64,000 bases of DNA from Betaproteobacteria bacterium. GTDB taxonomy: Bacteria; Pseudomonadota; Gammaproteobacteria; Burkholderiales; SG8-39. The DNA lies in NCBI GenBank assembly GCA_004297625.1, contig SCTY01000004.1:2697-66696 (forward strand), written 5' to 3'. Below, one piece after another: positions 8,126 to 24,986 of this stretch; position 1 is the stretch's first letter; every line of letters begins with the position of its first letter. A program made the translations under genes and the position numbers. The notes below the pieces were generated by a model. That model did no database searches and was not told the DNA's origin. It was given only the letters and a program-made list of their open reading frames with translations.

Positions 8126-8713
8126 CTATCCGACCCGGCTGTAGTCGATGACTATGTAGAAGACCGCAGGGTCGGTCGCGGACGGATTGTCGAACCGGTG
8201 TCCGACGTCGGCTCCGTAGAAAATCGCGTCCCCTGCGCCGAGCTTGAACTTTCGTCTGCCGAGAACCAACTGCAATTGTCCGGCGCTCACGGCAAGCGTT
8301 TCCCGGACGCCGGCCCTGTGCGGCGGGAACTCGCCGGAACTCTGGCCGGGCGGGAGGATGTTCACGACCAGATCCACCGTGCGGCCGCGACCCACCGGCG
8401 AAAGCGAGCGCCGTTCGAACCCCGTCCTGGCGACGCGAAAGACGGGTTGGTTCTTCACGCGCAGCAGCACCGGGTGGCGCCGGGCGATTGCAACCGGACC
8501 GCCGATCAGCTGTGAAATGCTGATTTTGAGTCCCTCCGCCAGCTTGCCGAGCACCGTGGCGGTAGGCGAGGCGCGCCCGCGTTCGATCTTGGAGAGCATC
8601 GAGCGGCTGACGCCAGTTTGCCTCTCCGTATCGCGCAAGGTGAGCCCGCGCTCCAGGCGCACGCGCCTGACACGCGCGCCAAGCGCGCCGCGCGGTACGT
8701 TCGAATGGTTCAC
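8126..8713 (-). CDS. XRE-family transcriptional regulator with C-terminal cupin domain
   Basis: HTH segment LGARVRRVRLERGLTLRDTERQTGVSRSMLSKIERG and cupin segment (GDAIFYGADVGHRFDN). I chose the GTG start at 8713 because GGAGAAGGA precedes it. The ORF track extends to 8809. Confidence 0.8.
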   Translation of the reverse strand: MNHSNVPRGALGARVRRVRLERGLTLRDTERQTGVSRSMLSKIERGRASPTATVLGKLAEGLKISISQLIGGPVAIARRHPVLLRVKNQPVFRVARTGFERRSLSPVGRGRTVDLVVNILPPGQSSGEFPPHRAGVRETLAVSAGQLQLVLGRRKFKLGAGDAIFYGADVGHRFDNPSATDPAVFYIVIDYSRVG

Positions 8714-9352
8714 TCCTTCTCCAGCAGGTTCATCAGACTCGACACCGGGCGTTGTCCTACCACCACATGTCCTTGTCCTGCGGGTACTGGCTCGCAACCC
8801 AAGTCTCATGCATCACCGCCGCAGGCGCGGTCAACAAGAATGCACAAAAGCGCAAGCGCTCGCATCGAACCTCCACGATTTGGACTGCGAGACATTTCCG
8901 GAGTGCGGCAATCATATCCTGGCGAAGAAGCTCGCAGGACCGCCGAGGCGGCGTGGAGCGCCCGGCTGAACGGCTACACAAGTATTCCTACTCCGCCCGG
9001 CACGCCTGCAATATCGGGTACTCGCTTATGCCAGACCGTCTGTCTTCAGGTTTTCCGCTCTGTAGCAAAGCACTCCGGCTTAACCAAGGCAGCCGAGGCG
9101 TCGGGCCCGAGTCCCGATTCGCTCAGCATCGTGATGGAACCAAGCAGTCCCCAAGCGCTGAATGGGCTGGCCGCAATCGGTCTCCGGTTCGCGATCATGC
9201 CAGGCGTCGCCGTGCCACAGGAAACTTGCCGCGGGCACCTCGTGGGTGTGCGCCTCTCGCTACGGTTGATGCGGAATTTCTCGGCGCTCTATCCGAAAGA
9301 CGAGGTCCGCTCGCAGCTCATCGTTACCTTCCTGCATTTCGCGACGACGCGG

Positions 9353-9440
9353 CTGGCGGCGCGATCTACAGTTGCGTGCCGAGCCGGGTAAGCCAGTCCG
9401 GCGCGACATCCAGTATCCATGCCTCGATTCGTCTGTCCGC
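9353..9440. repeat. direct repeat copy B (3' end of intact ccdA plus flank)
   Basis: Partner of 3869..3957; see that entry. Confidence 0.85.
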
Positions 9441-10094
9441 ACCGGTCAGGACGAACGCGCCGAGCATCAGCATCACGCCGCCGAGGACCTTCTTGCCGGT
9501 GCGCCCCGCGGCAAGAAGGCGGCCACGCAACCGGATCGTTACCTGCCGCGAAAGCGCACCGAGAGCGACGAGCGGCAACCCGGCGCCCAGCCCGAAAAGG
9601 GCCATCACCAGCGCCACCTGGGTAAGCTGCTCGCCCTGGCTCGCGAGCGTGATGGCCGCCCCGAGCGTCGGCCCCACGCATGGGCTCCATACGACGCCAA
9701 GCAGCAATCCCAGCACGAACTGTCCGGACAGGCCATCGGCTGAAATTCCGGACAGCATGCGCTGACCGGCGCTCGCCAAGCCGGAAGTGGCGAGCGCGAA
9801 GCGGTCCTGCAACAGCGTCGAAAGCAATAGAACGCCGAATCCGAGGAGCACTACCGCAGCGGCGGTGCGAAAGGCCTCCGGCTCGAGACCGATACTCGCG
9901 CCAAGGCTGGCGAGCAGTGCGCCGACGAGAGTGAAGGAAAGGGCGAGTCCCGCCGCGAGCGCCCAGGCGCCCAGCCGGTGCGCGGCCAGCGCCGAGCCGA
10001 TCAGGATCGGCACCAGCGGCAGCACGCAGGGCGACAGCGTCGAAAGCCCTCCGGCGGCGAAGGCGATGCCGTAGGTGCCGAAACCGAAATCCAT
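9366..10094 (-). CDS. ccdA: cytochrome c biogenesis/thiol:disulfide electron transfer membrane protein CcdA (DsbD-family core)
   Basis: 242-aa polytopic protein. It has LSTLSPCVLPLVPILIG and WSPCVGPTLG, the two conserved membrane Cys motifs. Confidence 0.88.
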   Translation of the reverse strand: MDFGFGTYGIAFAAGGLSTLSPCVLPLVPILIGSALAAHRLGAWALAAGLALSFTLVGALLASLGASIGLEPEAFRTAAAVVLLGFGVLLLSTLLQDRFALATSGLASAGQRMLSGISADGLSGQFVLGLLLGVVWSPCVGPTLGAAITLASQGEQLTQVALVMALFGLGAGLPLVALGALSRQVTIRLRGRLLAAGRTGKKVLGGVMLMLGAFVLTGADRRIEAWILDVAPDWLTRLGTQL

Positions 10095-10107
10095 CGTTCG
10101 CCGATAC

Positions 10108-10503
10108 TCAGAGCGCCTTGGCGAGGTCCGCCGCGATTGCGTCCTTATTCGTCTGCGCGATAGAGCGGGCCACCTCTTTCGTGCCCTTGAACACGATCAG
10201 CGTGCTCTGGGAGCGCACCCCGAAGCGCTTGAGTACCGCCTTCTGAAGATCATAGTCGACGATGAAAACTGCGAACCCGGCAAACTCCTTGCGACCGAGG
10301 AGCCCTCCGAGCACTTCCTCCTGAACGCGGCAGACGGGACACCAGTCGGCGTGGACGGAGACCAGCACCGGCTTGCCGGCCCGTTGGGCGGCTTCGAATT
10401 CGGCCGCATCGAACGGACGCTCCGCAGCCCGGAGTGCGCCTGAAAGGAAAAGCCCGGCAACCAGCAACAGGGTCGAACACCAAATAGACCGCGTCGCGCG
10501 CAT
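10108..10503 (-). CDS. secreted thioredoxin-family protein (CPVC active site)
   Basis: Signal peptide MRATRSIWCSTLLLVAGLFLSGALRA, then VSVHADWCPVCRVQ. Confidence 0.85.
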   Translation of the reverse strand: MRATRSIWCSTLLLVAGLFLSGALRAAERPFDAAEFEAAQRAGKPVLVSVHADWCPVCRVQEEVLGGLLGRKEFAGFAVFIVDYDLQKAVLKRFGVRSQSTLIVFKGTKEVARSIAQTNKDAIAADLAKAL

Positions 10504-10528
10504 GTCCAGAGTCCTTCTTTCGTCGTCG

Positions 10529-10984
10529 CTATGGCCGGATATAGTTCCAGCCTTGGCGCTGCCGCTCCATCAACTGCACCACGCCGGCCTTGACGTGGCC
10601 GATTCCGGCGATCAGGTCCGCGTTGGTGAGTTTCATGTTGTGCATCGTGTTGTCGCAGGCAACGACCGCAACGTTGTCGTCGAGCGCGCCGTTGACGCGG
10701 TCAACCACCTTGGACTCGGCCCTCAGCATGTTAAGGCCCGGGCCGTAAGCGACGATCTCGATCTCGACATTTTCCTTGCCGAGATCCGCCTGGACGTTTT
10801 TCGCGTTATTGAGCGCCAGATTCCACTTCACCGGATCGTTATCGCTCACCTGGAAGATGACTTTGTACTTCGCATTGGCTTGCGGGGCGCTCTTCACGGT
10901 TGCTGCCTGCTGCGCAAGAGCGTTGGGAATGGCCGTGAAGATGGTGCCGGCGGCGAACAGTGCGGCGATTACTGCCTGTCTCAT
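10529..10984 (-). CDS. secreted DsrE/DsrF-like (COG1416-type) protein
   Basis: Met at 10984 preceded by GGAGGA. Signal peptide MRQAVIAALFAAGTIFTAIPNALAQQ. Core segments: KVIFQVSDND..., EIEIVAYGPGLNML, VAVVACDNTMHNM, GWNYIRP. The long upstream ORF extension is rejected. Confidence 0.7.
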   Translation of the reverse strand: MRQAVIAALFAAGTIFTAIPNALAQQAATVKSAPQANAKYKVIFQVSDNDPVKWNLALNNAKNVQADLGKENVEIEIVAYGPGLNMLRAESKVVDRVNGALDDNVAVVACDNTMHNMKLTNADLIAGIGHVKAGVVQLMERQRQGWNYIRP

Positions 10985-11030
10985 ATTTCCTCCTCGATGA
11001 ATCGGGTTGCGGGCTTGCTCCGGACGTATT

Positions 11031-11056
11031 GACGCCGCAAGGCCCGGGAATATTCC
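11031..11056 (-). promoter_or_regulatory. candidate ECF-type promoter (GGAATA-N16-CGTC) for the dsrE-like/trx/ccdA operon
   Basis: The minus strand reads GGAATAttcccgggccttgcggCGTCaata, about 47 nt upstream of the 10984 start. Its geometry is identical to the plus-strand partner at 11079..11104. Confidence 0.55.
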
Positions 11057-11078
11057 ATCACCGGGCCCGGTCCGGGGT

Positions 11079-11104
11079 GGAATAAACTGGACGGGTACTT
11101 CGTC
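11079..11104 (+). promoter_or_regulatory. candidate autoregulated ECF-type promoter (GGAATA-N16-CGTC)
   Basis: GGAATAaactggacgggtacttCGTCtaa ends 24 nt upstream of the sigma-factor ATG (11128). Confidence 0.55.
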
Positions 11105-11127
11105 TAATCCCGGTGCAAGGAGTTCGA

Positions 11128-11670
11128 ATGCTGTTTGGCATTCAAGCCGCAGTGCGGCGGGAGGTTGCGCGGTCGCGCCAGGCGCTCTATCGGCTTGCGT
11201 ACGCCTGGTGCCACGACGCATCGCTCGCGGACGACTTGGCGCAGCAGGCCATCGAAAAGGCGCTGCGCAGTGCGGCGCAGGTGCGCGATCAGGCGCGTGT
11301 GCGAGGCTGGCTCTGCCGCATCCTCGCCAATTGCCTGCGCGACCATTTCCGCGCCACGCGCGAGCACGAGGACGTGGACCGTCTTGTGGACACGATTGCG
11401 GCAAGCGGCCTGACCCCGGAAGAGGCGCATGCCGGCGCGCAGCTTAGCGCGCGGGTGCGCGATGCAGTCGCCCGGTTGCCGCTGGGGCAACGTCAGGTCG
11501 TGACGCTGGTCGATCTCGAGGGCTGCAGCTATGCCGAAGTCGGCGAAGCGCTGGAGATTCCGATCGGCACAGTGATGAGTCGGTTATGCCGCGCTCGGCA
11601 GTCACTGCGCGAGCAGCTGCTTGCCGTGATGGCGGATGAGCGGGAAGCGAAGCTTCGGAGCGTGAAATGA
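11128..11670 (+). CDS. ECF (sigma-70 group IV) RNA polymerase sigma factor
   Basis: Region 2 (LYRLAYAWCHDASLADDLAQQAIEKAL) and region 4 (LPLGQRQVVTLVDLEGCSYAEVGEALEIPIGTVMSRLCRARQSL). I chose ATG 11128 because AAGGAG lies 5 nt upstream. The ORF track starts at GTG 11113. Confidence 0.9.
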   Translation: MLFGIQAAVRREVARSRQALYRLAYAWCHDASLADDLAQQAIEKALRSAAQVRDQARVRGWLCRILANCLRDHFRATREHEDVDRLVDTIAASGLTPEEAHAGAQLSARVRDAVARLPLGQRQVVTLVDLEGCSYAEVGEALEIPIGTVMSRLCRARQSLREQLLAVMADEREAKLRSVK

Positions 11671-12380
11671 GCGAAGAACACAGGGTTTCTGCCGAGATGC
11701 AGAGTGCGTTTGTCGATGGTCAGCTCGACGCCGCCGAATGGGAGCGCGTTGCCGGGCGGATCGAAGGCGATGCGCGGCTGCGGGAAGATTTGTGCGCGCT
11801 GCGCACCGTCAAGGACATGGTTCAGCGTGCGTATGCGGAGCCGCCCGCGTGGCGGGACCGCGCCGGACGCGAACCCCTGCGTCGCTGGATACCGCTCGCC
11901 GCGGCGAGCGCGATGTTCTCGGTCGCGGGCTGGTTCGGACACGCCTGGTGGAGCGATGAAGCGCAGGGGGACCCCGTTGCCGGCTACGCGCTGCGGGGTG
12001 ACTGGCGATCGCTCGATCGCAATCACGTACTGGTACACGTCAGCTCGGGGCGGCCCGAGGCGCTTGGGACGGCGCTCGACGAGGTGGAGGACGTGTTGCG
12101 TTCTGCGCGCACTGCGCACCGGAGCATCGAGGTCGAGATCGTCGCCAACAGCACGGGCCTGGATCTGCTGCACGCCGGAAACACGCCGCACGCAACGCGC
12201 GTCGCGGCGATGCGCGCCGAATTTCCCAACCTCAAATTGGTCGCCTGCGGCCAGACGCTGCAGCGGCTGCGTGAGAACGGAATCTCAGTCGAGTTGCTGC
12301 CCGGCACCGAAGTCGCGCCTTCGGCCCTCGATCAGGTGGTCAAGCGATTGCAGATCGGCTGGGTCTACGTTCGGGCCTGA
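11667..12380 (+). CDS. anti-sigma factor: RseA-like N-terminus, one TM helix, periplasmic DsrE-like domain
   Basis: 4-nt overlap with the sigma gene. The N-terminus has MQSAFVDGQLDAAEWERV. The TM helix is WIPLAAASAMFSVAGWFGHAWW. The C-terminal ~140 aa align with the 10529 product (EVEIVANSTGLDLL, LKLVACGQTLQRL, GWVYVRA). Confidence 0.75.
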   Translation: MSEEHRVSAEMQSAFVDGQLDAAEWERVAGRIEGDARLREDLCALRTVKDMVQRAYAEPPAWRDRAGREPLRRWIPLAAASAMFSVAGWFGHAWWSDEAQGDPVAGYALRGDWRSLDRNHVLVHVSSGRPEALGTALDEVEDVLRSARTAHRSIEVEIVANSTGLDLLHAGNTPHATRVAAMRAEFPNLKLVACGQTLQRLRENGISVELLPGTEVAPSALDQVVKRLQIGWVYVRA

Positions 12381-12464
12381 TGACAGGAAAACCGACGGAT
12401 CAAGGCGGTGTCATTACCGATTTCGTCTCGCCGAAAGAGCGATTTCCTCCTTTTGGAGATTGAC

Positions 12465-13016
12465 ATGAGATCCGTCGCGCTATTCAGTACTTCCCTATTG
12501 TTCCTGTTCAGTGGTCTGGCGTCGGCTAATCCTCCCTCGCCCTACGTCGGGCAGGAGACGCGCGCTATCAAAGCGTTGTCGGCGCAGGAAGTTCAGGATT
12601 ACCTCGAGGGCAAGGGCATGGGTCTCGCCAAGGCCGCCGAACTCAATCGCTACCCCGGTCCGGCGCATGCTCTGGAGCTTGCCGTGCCGCTCGATCTAAC
12701 GATAGAACAGAAGGCACGCACTCAGGAGCTGTTCAAACGGATGCAGGAAAAGGCGATAACTCTGGGCCGCCTGCTGGTCGACGAGGAAGTGAATTTGGAC
12801 AGGCTGTTTGCTACCCGAACCGTCACGCCCGAAACGCTGCGAGCAGCGCTCGAACGCATCGGCAAGGTTCAAAGTCAAGTGCGCGAGGCGCACCTGGAAG
12901 CGCATCTGGCCCAGACCGAGATACTTTCCCCGGCGCAGACTGCGAAATACGTCGAATTGCGTGGCTACGGCGCGCATCCGACCGGAAATGGCGAGCGGCA
13001 ACATGGCAGGCACTGA
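12465..13016 (+). CDS. periplasmic Spy/CpxP/heavy-metal-sensor-like protein (LTXXQ-type repeats)
   Basis: Met at 12465 after GGAG. Signal peptide MRSVALFSTSLLFLFSGLASA. Helical LxxxQ motifs: LSAQEVQDY, LTIEQKARTQELF, LSPAQTAKY. Confidence 0.6.
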   Translation: MRSVALFSTSLLFLFSGLASANPPSPYVGQETRAIKALSAQEVQDYLEGKGMGLAKAAELNRYPGPAHALELAVPLDLTIEQKARTQELFKRMQEKAITLGRLLVDEEVNLDRLFATRTVTPETLRAALERIGKVQSQVREAHLEAHLAQTEILSPAQTAKYVELRGYGAHPTGNGERQHGRH

Positions 13017-13362
13017 CGGTCTGATCGCACACCGGGTCGCGTCCCGGTGCGTGGTCTATGAGCGATCGGGGGCCACGTGATTTCCGGCAGATGACTTCAT
13101 GCTCAGACCGCGATTGCCGGCAGCCCGACGCGGCTACCGTCGCTCATTCCGGCGAGCGTTTCCAGGCTGATAGAGCGGCTCTGGTCTGCCCGCCCGTCGT
13201 TTTGCTCGGACTGGCAAAACTGGTCTGGGTGATCGTGGGGTGGCCGCTGGGCGGGGCCGTGGACTTCGCCATGCGGCGGTCGCTTACCCCTCGCGCCATG
13301 GTTCAACCAACCCGTGGTCATAGACGAAGCGGCCCGCTGGTTCACTCGAGAGTCGACGCCCG

Positions 13363-14145
13363 CTACCCGTGCGGCGCGGTCGCCAGCTTCAGAAACTCGT
13401 TCAATTCCGTCGTATTCAGGTCGGACACGGCGATATACGTGAATTCGCCATCCCTGCGCGCGGCGATGTTGAATCCATTGTGCCGCGCGTCGCCGTGCGG
13501 GGCGAGCCGGCCGGCCTGCTTAGTCGGCAGCACGTAGAGATTGATCAGGTGCTCCTTGCGACGGTAGACCAGCGCGGCCACCGCCTCCTCTTCGAACACT
13601 TCGAGCCGGCCGCCCACCAGCGTGAAACCCTGCGCCGCGAAGTCCTCGACCGGCGGCGCGTATCTCAGCCGGCCGCTGAACCAGGGCTTGACAGCGTGGC
13701 TGTCGGACGACGCGACATCGACCGCGTGCGGCGACATCATCGAGCGCAGATGGGCCGAGACCAGTAGCCTTTCGCCGGCATCGCTTCTTGCAAGATTGAG
13801 CACCAACGCGGTTGCGACGACCGAGACCAGCGCCGTTGACGTCATCGCGCCCGCCAGCCGCAAGTTCCACCGGTTGCGCGATCCGGCGCGTTCGCGCCCT
13901 TCCCGCTCGAACCCGCGCTCTTGAACCGGACGCGCGGGCAGCGCACTCAGGCGGCGCGGCGCTCGGTGGCGCCGCACGCGTGCGCGCATGGCGTCGCTCA
14001 AGGCGCGCAGCACCGCATGGCGCTTCAGCAGCGACGCAGATAGCGTCGCGGTGGCGTCCACTGGCCCAAGCAAGCCGCGCCGCTCGCCATCGTCGGCTTC
14101 GCCGTCGATCAGCGCCGTCAGCAGACGTTCATCCTTTTCGTTCAT
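13363..14145 (-). CDS. transmembrane anti-sigma factor (COG5662-like)
   Basis: 17-nt overlap with the upstream ECF sigma gene. N-terminus LLTALIDGEADDGE; one central TM helix (LAGAMTSTALVSVVATALVL). The C-terminal domain resembles that of 23031..23876. Confidence 0.75.
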   Translation of the reverse strand: MNEKDERLLTALIDGEADDGERRGLLGPVDATATLSASLLKRHAVLRALSDAMRARVRRHRAPRRLSALPARPVQERGFEREGRERAGSRNRWNLRLAGAMTSTALVSVVATALVLNLARSDAGERLLVSAHLRSMMSPHAVDVASSDSHAVKPWFSGRLRYAPPVEDFAAQGFTLVGGRLEVFEEEAVAALVYRRKEHLINLYVLPTKQAGRLAPHGDARHNGFNIAARRDGEFTYIAVSDLNTTELNEFLKLATAPHG

Positions 14146-14701
14146 AGGTGTTCATTCCCTTGTCTTTCAGTGCTTGCAGCATCATTTCGCGAGCGCGCGC
14201 CAAGCGTGACATCACGGTGCCCACCGGCGCCTCGATGACGCGCGCGATTTCCTTGTACGACAGATCCTCCAGCTCGCGCAGCACCAGCGCCTCGCGGTAA
14301 TGCACCGGCAGAGCCGCAAGCGCCGCATTCAGCGCTTCGGCGTCCGACAGGCGCTCGGTCCAGCTCTCCGGGCTCTCGGCCCAGATCGATTCGTCGGCCA
14401 CGTGCTCGTGCGCTTCGAGGTCGATCGGCTCTTCGTGCTGCGCCTGGTTCTTGCGCGCCGAACGCCAGTCGAAGAACACCCGGCGCACGATACCGAGCAA
14501 CCATGGCCGGCCTTCTTTGCCGCGGAACGAGGCGAAGTAATGCCACGCCCGCGCGAGCGCTTCCTGTGCGATGTCCTGGGCGTGGGTGTCGTCGCCCGAC
14601 AGCCAGCGCGCCAGGTTGTAGGCCGCATCCAGATGGGGCATGACCAGTCTGGCGAACCGGGAGCCGGGCTGTTCCTCTTGGGTCCTACCGAATCCGAACA
14701 T
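14129..14701 (-). CDS. ECF RNA polymerase sigma factor
   Basis: LDAAYNLARWLSGDDTHAQDIAQEALARAW and LPVHYREALVLRELEDLSYKEIARVIEAPVGTVMSRLARARE. Confidence 0.9.
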   Translation of the reverse strand: MFGFGRTQEEQPGSRFARLVMPHLDAAYNLARWLSGDDTHAQDIAQEALARAWHYFASFRGKEGRPWLLGIVRRVFFDWRSARKNQAQHEEPIDLEAHEHVADESIWAESPESWTERLSDAEALNAALAALPVHYREALVLRELEDLSYKEIARVIEAPVGTVMSRLARAREMMLQALKDKGMNTYERKG

Positions 14702-14731
14702 CAGCTATTCCACGGCGCGATACATACCTGT

Positions 14732-14757
14732 TACCGACTTGTTGATGGATTTATTCC
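14732..14757 (-). promoter_or_regulatory. candidate ECF-type promoter (GGAATA-N16-GGTA) for sigma/anti-sigma pair 2
   Basis: The minus strand reads GGAATAaatccatcaacaagtcGGTAac. Its -35 element is back-to-back with the plus-strand partner around the palindrome TTCCAATTGGAA. Confidence 0.45.
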
Positions 14758-14761
14758 AATT

Positions 14762-14787
14762 GGAATGAATCCGGTACGCCAACAGTA
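14762..14787 (+). promoter_or_regulatory. candidate ECF-type promoter (GGAATG-N16-AGTA) for the metallophosphoesterase/cupredoxin operon
   Basis: GGAATGaatccggtacgccaacAGTAg. It shares GGAATRAATCC and the N16 spacing with the divergent partner. Confidence 0.45.
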
Positions 14788-14873
14788 GTTGGAGGTGCGG
14801 GCCGCAGAGTCATACTCGGATCATCCCAAGATCGCGACGCCGCATACAACCTTACACCGATTCGGAGGAGAAC

Positions 14874-24418: not shown

Positions 24419-24847
24419 TCAGTAGCCGCTGACCATGAGCTTGGGGTCGATCTGCCAGGTTTCGCTCACCAGCTTGCCCTGACGATAGGTGAGGACGTAA
24501 CGAACCTTGATCGGCTGCTTGCCCTCGAACTGCACGTTCGCCGTTACCGTCGTGCCGCTCGGGTTGGCCGATTCCTCCAGCTTGTCCACGCTGACCTTGA
24601 GCGGGCCCTGCGCCTTGGCAAACTTCTCCCAGAGACCGCTGATGTTCGCTGCGCCCGTGTAGGTGCCATCCAACGGGCCGCCGATCCAGTTGAGCTGGGC
24701 GTTGTCGGCGTAGCCGCGTGCGAGCAGGGCGGTGTCACCGGAGCCGATCGCCTGGAAATGCAATTTGGCATCATCGGCGGCCTGGCCGGCGACGGCGCTG
24801 CCGGTGGCGGCGAAGAACAGCGATAGCGACAGAATAGTTCGTTTCAT
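24419..24847 (-). CDS. secreted NTF2/SnoaL-like fold protein
   Basis: Signal peptide MKRTILSLSLFFAATGSAVAG. About 120-aa mature domain with an NTF2-like pattern (family call is tentative). Confidence 0.5.
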   Translation of the reverse strand: MKRTILSLSLFFAATGSAVAGQAADDAKLHFQAIGSGDTALLARGYADNAQLNWIGGPLDGTYTGAANISGLWEKFAKAQGPLKVSVDKLEESANPSGTTVTANVQFEGKQPIKVRYVLTYRQGKLVSETWQIDPKLMVSGY

Positions 24848-24901
24848 CGGAGCGATCCTTTTCGGTTTGAGGTGTGTTAGTAAGTGGCCTTACACCCCAT
24901 A

Positions 24902-24927
24902 TACGAACGACACCCGGCGTCTATTCC
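24902..24927 (-). promoter_or_regulatory. candidate ECF-type promoter (GGAATA-N16-CGTA) heading the NTF2-like/sigma/anti-sigma/propeller/DUF305 operon
   Basis: The minus strand reads GGAATAgacgccgggtgtcgttCGTAtat, about 55 nt upstream of the 24847 start. Confidence 0.5.
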
Positions 24928-24986
24928 ACGAACGCGGCGAACGATGACGAAACTGCGAGCGCTGTACGCAAACGCCGGTTCAAACA

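Follow-up and report, generated by a model that had tools for sequence, protein, structure and literature searches.

The 143-bp gap (10985..11127) between an ECF sigma factor gene and a divergently oriented gene for a periplasmic DsrE-like protein very probably holds two back-to-back promoters, both recognized by the adjacent sigma factor. The gap is part of a 64,000-nucleotide stretch of betaproteobacterial DNA, called here the window, and its features are listed in Table 1. The case for the two promoters is built from their sequences and from orthologous loci.

On the plus strand, GGAATAaactggacgggtacttCGTC (11079..11104) points towards the sigma gene, whose ATG (11128) stands 23 nt after the CGTC and is preceded by the ribosome-binding site AAGGAG (11117..11122). 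Its minus-strand counterpart, GGAATAttcccgggccttgcggCGTC (11056..11031), points towards the dsrE-like gene, whose ATG (10984) stands 46 nt after the CGTC. A reading made from the sequence alone had described such a back-to-back GGAATA-N16-CGTC pair; both positions and both strands were confirmed in the gap, and the hexamer, the 16-nt length of the spacer, and the CGTC are the same in GGAATAaactggacgggtacttCGTC and GGAATAttcccgggccttgcggCGTC, as that sequence-only reading had stated. No sigma-70-like promoter was detected in 9200..13300. The only inverted repeat of the gap is weak, and no structure was found in the predicted 5' leader of dsrE (z = +1.5).

Table 1 Features of the divergent locus and its surroundings (positions in the window).
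Feature	Position	Strand	Evidence or remarks
P(sigma), candidate autoregulatory ECF promoter, gtGGAATAAActggacgggtacttCGTCTAAt	11077..11108	+	Exact motif, PWM, conservation
P(sigma) -35, GGAATA	11079..11084	+	
P(sigma) -10, CGTC	11101..11104	+	
P(dsrE), candidate divergent ECF promoter, atGGAATATTcccgggccttgcggCGTCAATa (minus-strand reading)	11027..11058	-	Exact motif, PWM, conservation
P(dsrE) -35	11056..11051	-	
P(dsrE) -10, CGTC	11034..11031	-	
ECF sigma factor, 180 aa, ECF26-like	11128..11670	+	Pfam Sigma70_r2, Sigma70_r4_2
Anti-sigma factor, 237 aa	11667..12380	+	4-nt overlap with the sigma gene
Periplasmic Metal_resist (CpxP/Spy-like) protein	12408..13016	+	Pfam PF13801, 30.1 bits
Periplasmic DsrE/MTH1491-like protein, 151 aa, signal peptide	10529..10984	-	First gene behind P(dsrE)
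Periplasmic thioredoxin (WCPVC)	10108..10503	-	Pfam Thioredoxin; 25 nt downstream of dsrE-like
CcdA/DsbD-type membrane thiol-disulfide electron transporter	9366..10094	-	Pfam DsbD_TM; 13 nt downstream of trx
HTH-cupin regulator	8809..8126		

Exact GGAATA-N16-CGTC occurs twice in the window when both strands are counted, against 0.09 matches expected, and both occurrences lie in the gap. That two matches could arise by chance in a GC-rich intergenic region is suggested by the shuffled windows, 1 of 100 of which likewise gave two exact matches; here, however, the two fall in the same 143-bp gap with the correct orientation and distance to a start codon. With a PWM built from orthologous loci only, P(sigma) scored 28.0 bits and P(dsrE) 25.4 bits, whereas the best sites of 20 random sequences scored 10.0-17.6 bits. 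The window sites are thus 8-10 bits above any random sequence, dozens of orthologous loci share them, and chance coincidence is ruled out by these comparative data. The third-best site of the window with the same PWM, GTGGAATAGACGCCGGGTGTCGTTCGTATATG (24929..24898, minus strand), lies 50 nt upstream of a gene for a small secreted protein (24847..24419). Its score of 14.7 bits falls inside the random range, and we rejected it as a clear further site; it may mark a weakly recognized third target or belong to a paralogous sigma factor.

Predicting ECF promoters from conservation upstream of orthologs is a standard method (PMC7826278). A scan of species-representative genomes yielded 80 loci, of which the best 49 (42-60% sigma identity) were taken as the family set, and the 31 remaining ECF loci, which lack a DsrE-domain anti-sigma gene, served as controls. 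The family loci come nearly all from metagenome-assembled beta- and gammaproteobacteria, with labels that include Thiobacillaceae, Chromatiales, Thiotrichales, Sedimenticolaceae, and Thiodiazotropha. Exact GGAATA-N16-CGTC was found 54 times in the family loci (349 kb) and once in the controls (212 kb), the same motif with a 15-nt spacer 8 times and never, respectively, and every other spacer length from 8 to 24 nt gave 0-2 matches each in either set. The PWM retrieved 65 family sites of at least 18 bits with a downstream ORF; in the controls, 6 sites reached at least 14 bits and a single one reached 18 (18.3 bits). With the looser seed GGAATA-N16-CGT, there were 55 matches in the family loci, compared with 1.9 expected from base composition. 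Columns outside the search pattern were also biased in these 55 sites, with T at -1 in 41 and A at +6 in 39, and the CGT was followed by C in 53 sites, then by T, then by T or A. The resulting extended consensus is aTGGAATAAA-N-CGTCTtA.

In most of the 49 loci the sigma gene is preceded by a motif site (30 were found automatically and several more by eye), and about 20 orthologous loci have a second copy before a DsrE-like gene. The genes behind non-sigma sites encode mostly small secreted proteins or lipoproteins of the DsrE family, together with one SoxY and one cytochrome c; in an alignment made almost entirely of proteins behind such sites (A1, 23 members), 18 matched Pfam DsrE. When the gap itself was aligned with those of relatives having 60-89% sigma identity (A2), the dsrE ribosome-binding site, GACG, TATTCC, GGAATAA, and CGTC were invariant, and the spacers varied. 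The motif is therefore placed as expected of an ECF promoter, before the operon of the sigma factor itself and before targets close by, and is conserved in orthologs. The spacer, the conservation, and the downstream genes together support the predicted autoregulation of the sigma gene and the predicted control of a divergent target operon, both of which the sequence-only reading had put forward. In approximately 10 of the most distant orthologs the -10 element upstream of the sigma gene is weaker (CATC, CTCT); in the gammaproteobacterial branch, L026, L028, L031, L032, L035, L036, L039, and L044 keep a sigma-upstream GGAATAAA followed by CATC, CTCT, or a similar -10. In this branch the DsrE promoter often retains CGTC, so that autoregulation may be weaker there than target activation.

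The two GGAATA copies of the gap are inverted to each other, and GGAATATTCC (11047..11056), which contains the minus-strand -35, is a perfect 10-bp palindrome. Such an arrangement could represent the site of a dimeric transcription factor, e.g. the HTH-cupin regulator of Table 1, rather than a pair of -35 elements. We regard this as very unlikely because the distance between the GGAATA copies differs among the loci (approximately 8-200 bp) and conservation does not extend to the second half of the palindrome. Only the TATTCC half is kept in relatives, and L084 and L001 have lost the second half and kept TATTCCAT. Furthermore, the distance from each copy to its CGTC is fixed at 16 nt, and many loci have the sigma-proximal site alone.

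Granting that the sites are real ECF promoters, they might be read mainly by another of the genome's ECF sigma factors, either an ECF26-like paralog or the second ECF sigma factor encoded in the window, with the adjacent sigma factor being a cascade target. This possibility is raised because ECF26 paralogs cross-activate in Sinorhizobium meliloti, where RpoE1, RpoE4, and RpoE6 activate each other's GGAATA promoters (PMC6180224, PMC3511301), and GGAAT elements are present in the upstream gap of the second ECF gene as well. Nevertheless, we consider it improbable: the motif tracks this particular sigma/anti-sigma family in 49 beta- and gammaproteobacterial genomes and is essentially absent from the 31 other ECF loci, while the second sigma factor is unlinked to the family elsewhere and the site upstream of its gene differs in the -10. 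Recognition by the adjacent sigma factor remains the preferred reading. The second sigma/anti-sigma pair (14701..14129 and 14145..13363, minus strand) has its own divergent gap (14702..14873), which contains a perfect palindrome, ATTCCAATTGGAAT, formed by two back-to-back GGAAT elements (14766..14753). The copy facing the second sigma gene, TTGGAATAAATCCATCAACAAGTCGGTAAC (14759..14729, minus strand), scores 9.6 bits. This gap may be another divergent ECF promoter pair of related specificity.

Autoregulation is a general property of ECF systems, as exemplified by sigma-E and sigma-W and covered by the classifications of Staron 2009 and Casas-Pastor 2021. In these systems the sigma/anti-sigma operon is preceded by its own group-specific promoter, and the locus in the window would be one more instance. 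The published consensus of group ECF26 consists of a -35 GGAATA and a -10 GT (PMC6180224), with which the consensus of our 55 sites agrees. The fit to the general ECF architecture (-35 GGAAC or GGAAT and -10 CGT, approximately 16-17 nt apart) claimed by the sequence-only reading held on both strands. The TSS-mapped rpoE4 promoter of S. meliloti, ATGGAATAAGCGAGGCAGCTCGCTCGTCTCTAC, with the core ATGGAATAAG-N-CGTCTCTAC, is nearly equal to the window motif (PMC6180224); rpoE4-ecfR4, sorT-sorU-azu2, and SMc01418-rpoE1-ecfR1 share the -35 GGAATA, the 16-nt spacer, and a CGTCT-type -10. Sites of the form GGAATAAA-N-GTGTC were seen in the RpoE1-like loci L076 and L078.

The sigma factor itself shows 40% identity (92.8 bits) to an RpoE6 ortholog encoded on S. 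medicae pSymA, recognized as such by its divergent S8 protease gene, whereas solved ECF sigma factors of other groups reached at most 74 bits. The nearest NCBIfam model, PRK12511, is common to the window sigma factor and RpoE6/RpoE1-like proteins, all of which score below its cutoff. As in ECF26 systems, a predicted co-transcribed, single-pass anti-sigma factor lies downstream, with a 4-nt gene overlap, one hydrophobic segment, and the same position in 49 of 49 loci. The typical ECF26 neighbors (catalase/cytochrome b561, lipoprotein, serine protease) and an RsiW-like anti-sigma domain are absent, and the neighbors are instead DsrE-like, Trx, CcdA, DsbC, or Sox genes. From these sequence features the system appears ECF26-like as regards its promoter specificity and closest relatives; its sensor domain and targets are distinct.

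The closest functional parallels are RpoE1 and RpoE4 of S. meliloti, regulators of the periplasmic sulfite dehydrogenase SorT (PMC3511301) that respond to thiosulfate and taurine, probably via sulfite (PMC6180224, PMC3511301). Likewise shared are an autoregulated sigma/anti-sigma operon, a very small regulon, and a link to periplasmic inorganic sulfur oxidation. The differences are nevertheless substantial: the sigma factors share no more than about 40% identity; the anti-sigma domain is DsrE/MTH1491-like, whereas EcfR1/3/4/6 are described as RsiW-like; the targets are a DsrE-like carrier with Trx and CcdA (Sox genes in relatives) rather than SorT; and the system occurs in chemolithotrophic beta- and gammaproteobacteria, nearly all of them known from metagenomes, rather than in a heterotrophic rhizobium. 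In the RpoE6/SMa0142 pair of pSymA (ECF26) the sigma gene is divergent from a target with a GGAATA promoter, as in the window, but that target is an S8 serine protease, its promoter lies near the sigma start with no back-to-back autoregulatory copy, and the mapped promoter of rpoE6 itself looks RpoD/RpoH-like (PMC6180224). Contexts of ECF281 and ECF290 have a heavy-metal resistance protein at position +2 (PMC7826278), similar to the PF13801 Metal_resist protein at +2 after the window sigma gene; however, none of the other 49 loci has the PF13801 gene, and by Pfam or NCBIfam the anti-sigma factor is neither of the zinc-finger type nor RskA-like.

The length of the sigma factor agrees with that of its homologs (179-184 aa). 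The CpxP/Spy-like gene begins 27 nt after the anti-sigma gene, although its true start is probably an ATG near 12465, and it has no motif site of its own. It is possibly the third gene of the sigma operon, a membership that we infer only, because the gene is not conserved in other loci. On the opposite strand, trx and ccdA probably share an operon with the dsrE-like gene, given the short intergenic gaps and the identical order in the relative L081. The DsrE-like protein scores 25.6 bits with Pfam DsrE (cutoff 22.7) and matches PDB 1l1s (MTH1491) with E=2.8e-19, and its Cys110 is at least 90% conserved in alignment A1. The profile score above the cutoff and the conserved cysteine of the active-site region place it by sequence in the MTH1491 subfamily of the DsrE/DsrF-like family (PF02635), with a putative sulfur-transfer activity.

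The anti-sigma factor consists of an N-terminal anti-sigma-like domain, one hydrophobic segment (residues ~73-95), and a periplasmic DsrE/MTH1491-like domain. Searches with the protein against Pfam and NCBIfam gave no significant family. Its C-terminal domain matches PDB 1l1s (MTH1491) with E=5.7e-5, and in tblastn the protein cross-hits DsrE-like proteins; the periplasmic domain can thus be regarded as a DsrE-like paralog of the protein that the system is predicted to regulate. All 49 sequences have Cys194 in this domain, and 47 of the 49 have Cys43, which lies in the cytoplasmic part; this conservation suggests sulfur or thiol-redox sensing. Because the sensor domain is DsrE-like and carries an invariant cysteine, the signal is most likely a periplasmic sulfur or thiol-redox species, e.g. 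sulfane sulfur, thiosulfate, or sulfite. In a full-text literature search on ECF or anti-sigma factors with DsrE or Sox, we did not find a DsrE-domain anti-sigma factor described; the hits for DsrE were DsRed matches and unrelated papers, and a search on ECF sigma factors with SoxYZ returned nothing relevant.

The genes behind the sites across the loci define a core regulon that would comprise the sigma/anti-sigma operon and a periplasmic DsrE-like protein. In L081, the closest relative (89% sigma identity), DsrE-Trx-CcdA follow the same divergent site in the same order, and DsrE-SoxYZAX are found in addition after the anti-sigma gene. The divergent operon is DsrE-SoxY-SoxZ-SoxA at 74% sigma identity and DsrE-DsbC at 73%. 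Trx, CcdA, and CpxP-like genes were rejected as conserved regulon members because none of the 49 loci has them close to its sigma gene; since trx and ccdA stand behind the DsrE-like gene in the closest relative only, their membership appears lineage-specific. Close relatives have SoxY, SoxZ, SoxA, and cytochrome c genes within DsrE-like transcription units (L081, 4525..7353; L082, 137..2514; L030, ~2860), and one SoxY gene has a motif site of its own. These Sox genes and the motif before SoxY link the sigma factor to thiosulfate oxidation. The lineage-specific additions to the regulon are, as judged from gene content, genes for thiosulfate oxidation or periplasmic thiol reduction.

In the mechanism that we infer (start sites, sigma dependence, operon extent, and signal alike), the membrane anti-sigma factor would keep the sigma factor inactive. 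Once free, the sigma factor would direct RNA polymerase to the GGAATA (-35) and CGTC (-10) elements of each strand. The ECF26 promoter sequences listed for S. meliloti seem to run up to the TSS, which would place it 9-10 nt after the CGTC (PMC6180224), and by analogy transcription would start near 11112-11114 on the plus strand, leading into the sigma gene, the anti-sigma gene, and possibly the CpxP-like gene, and near 11023-11020 on the minus strand, leading into the dsrE-like gene, probably with trx and ccdA. The predicted leaders of approximately 15 nt before the sigma ATG and approximately 38 nt before the dsrE-like ATG would each include a ribosome-binding site. In several orthologs (L001, L021, L024, L031, L032, and L043) only ~9-11 nt separate the CGTC from the sigma start codon, and leaderless mRNAs from the predicted +1 would therefore fit, suggesting that some sigma mRNAs of the family are leaderless. 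A search for sequencing runs containing the window or the Thiodiazotropha ortholog L026 returned no RNA runs; all runs found were of DNA and came from a single groundwater metagenome study. In the proposed mechanism, the sigma/anti-sigma operon would be under positive autoregulation, with negative feedback built in through the anti-sigma factor.

The promoters, conserved in about fifty related sulfur-oxidizing bacteria, are almost certainly real and of a known type. As such they add little that is new, being a clean, well-conserved instance of an ECF26-type motif and of ECF autoregulation, and the part worth pursuing is the DsrE-domain anti-sigma factor with its link to Sox genes. In uncultured sulfur oxidizers the regulon would be compact, consisting of the sigma/anti-sigma pair and a periplasmic DsrE-like protein, joined by Trx/CcdA, DsbC, or SoxYZA. 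The association of ECF26 with thiosulfate and sulfite would be widened from heterotrophic rhizobia to lithotrophs. We tentatively propose, as a possibility that the sequences suggest but do not make the likelier one, that the pair represents an undescribed ECF26-like subgroup, seen so far mainly in sulfur-oxidizing beta- and gammaproteobacteria, in which the anti-sigma cysteine directly senses periplasmic sulfane sulfur (or, alternatively, another reactive sulfur species) and the main target is a free-standing paralog of the sensor domain, with genes for Sox proteins or thiol reductases in addition. Once induced, the DsrE-like protein would then drain or compete for the signal and close a feedback loop. 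If this is true, the sensor would be a copy of the very protein that it regulates, and lithotrophic sulfur oxidation would have an envelope regulator dedicated to it.
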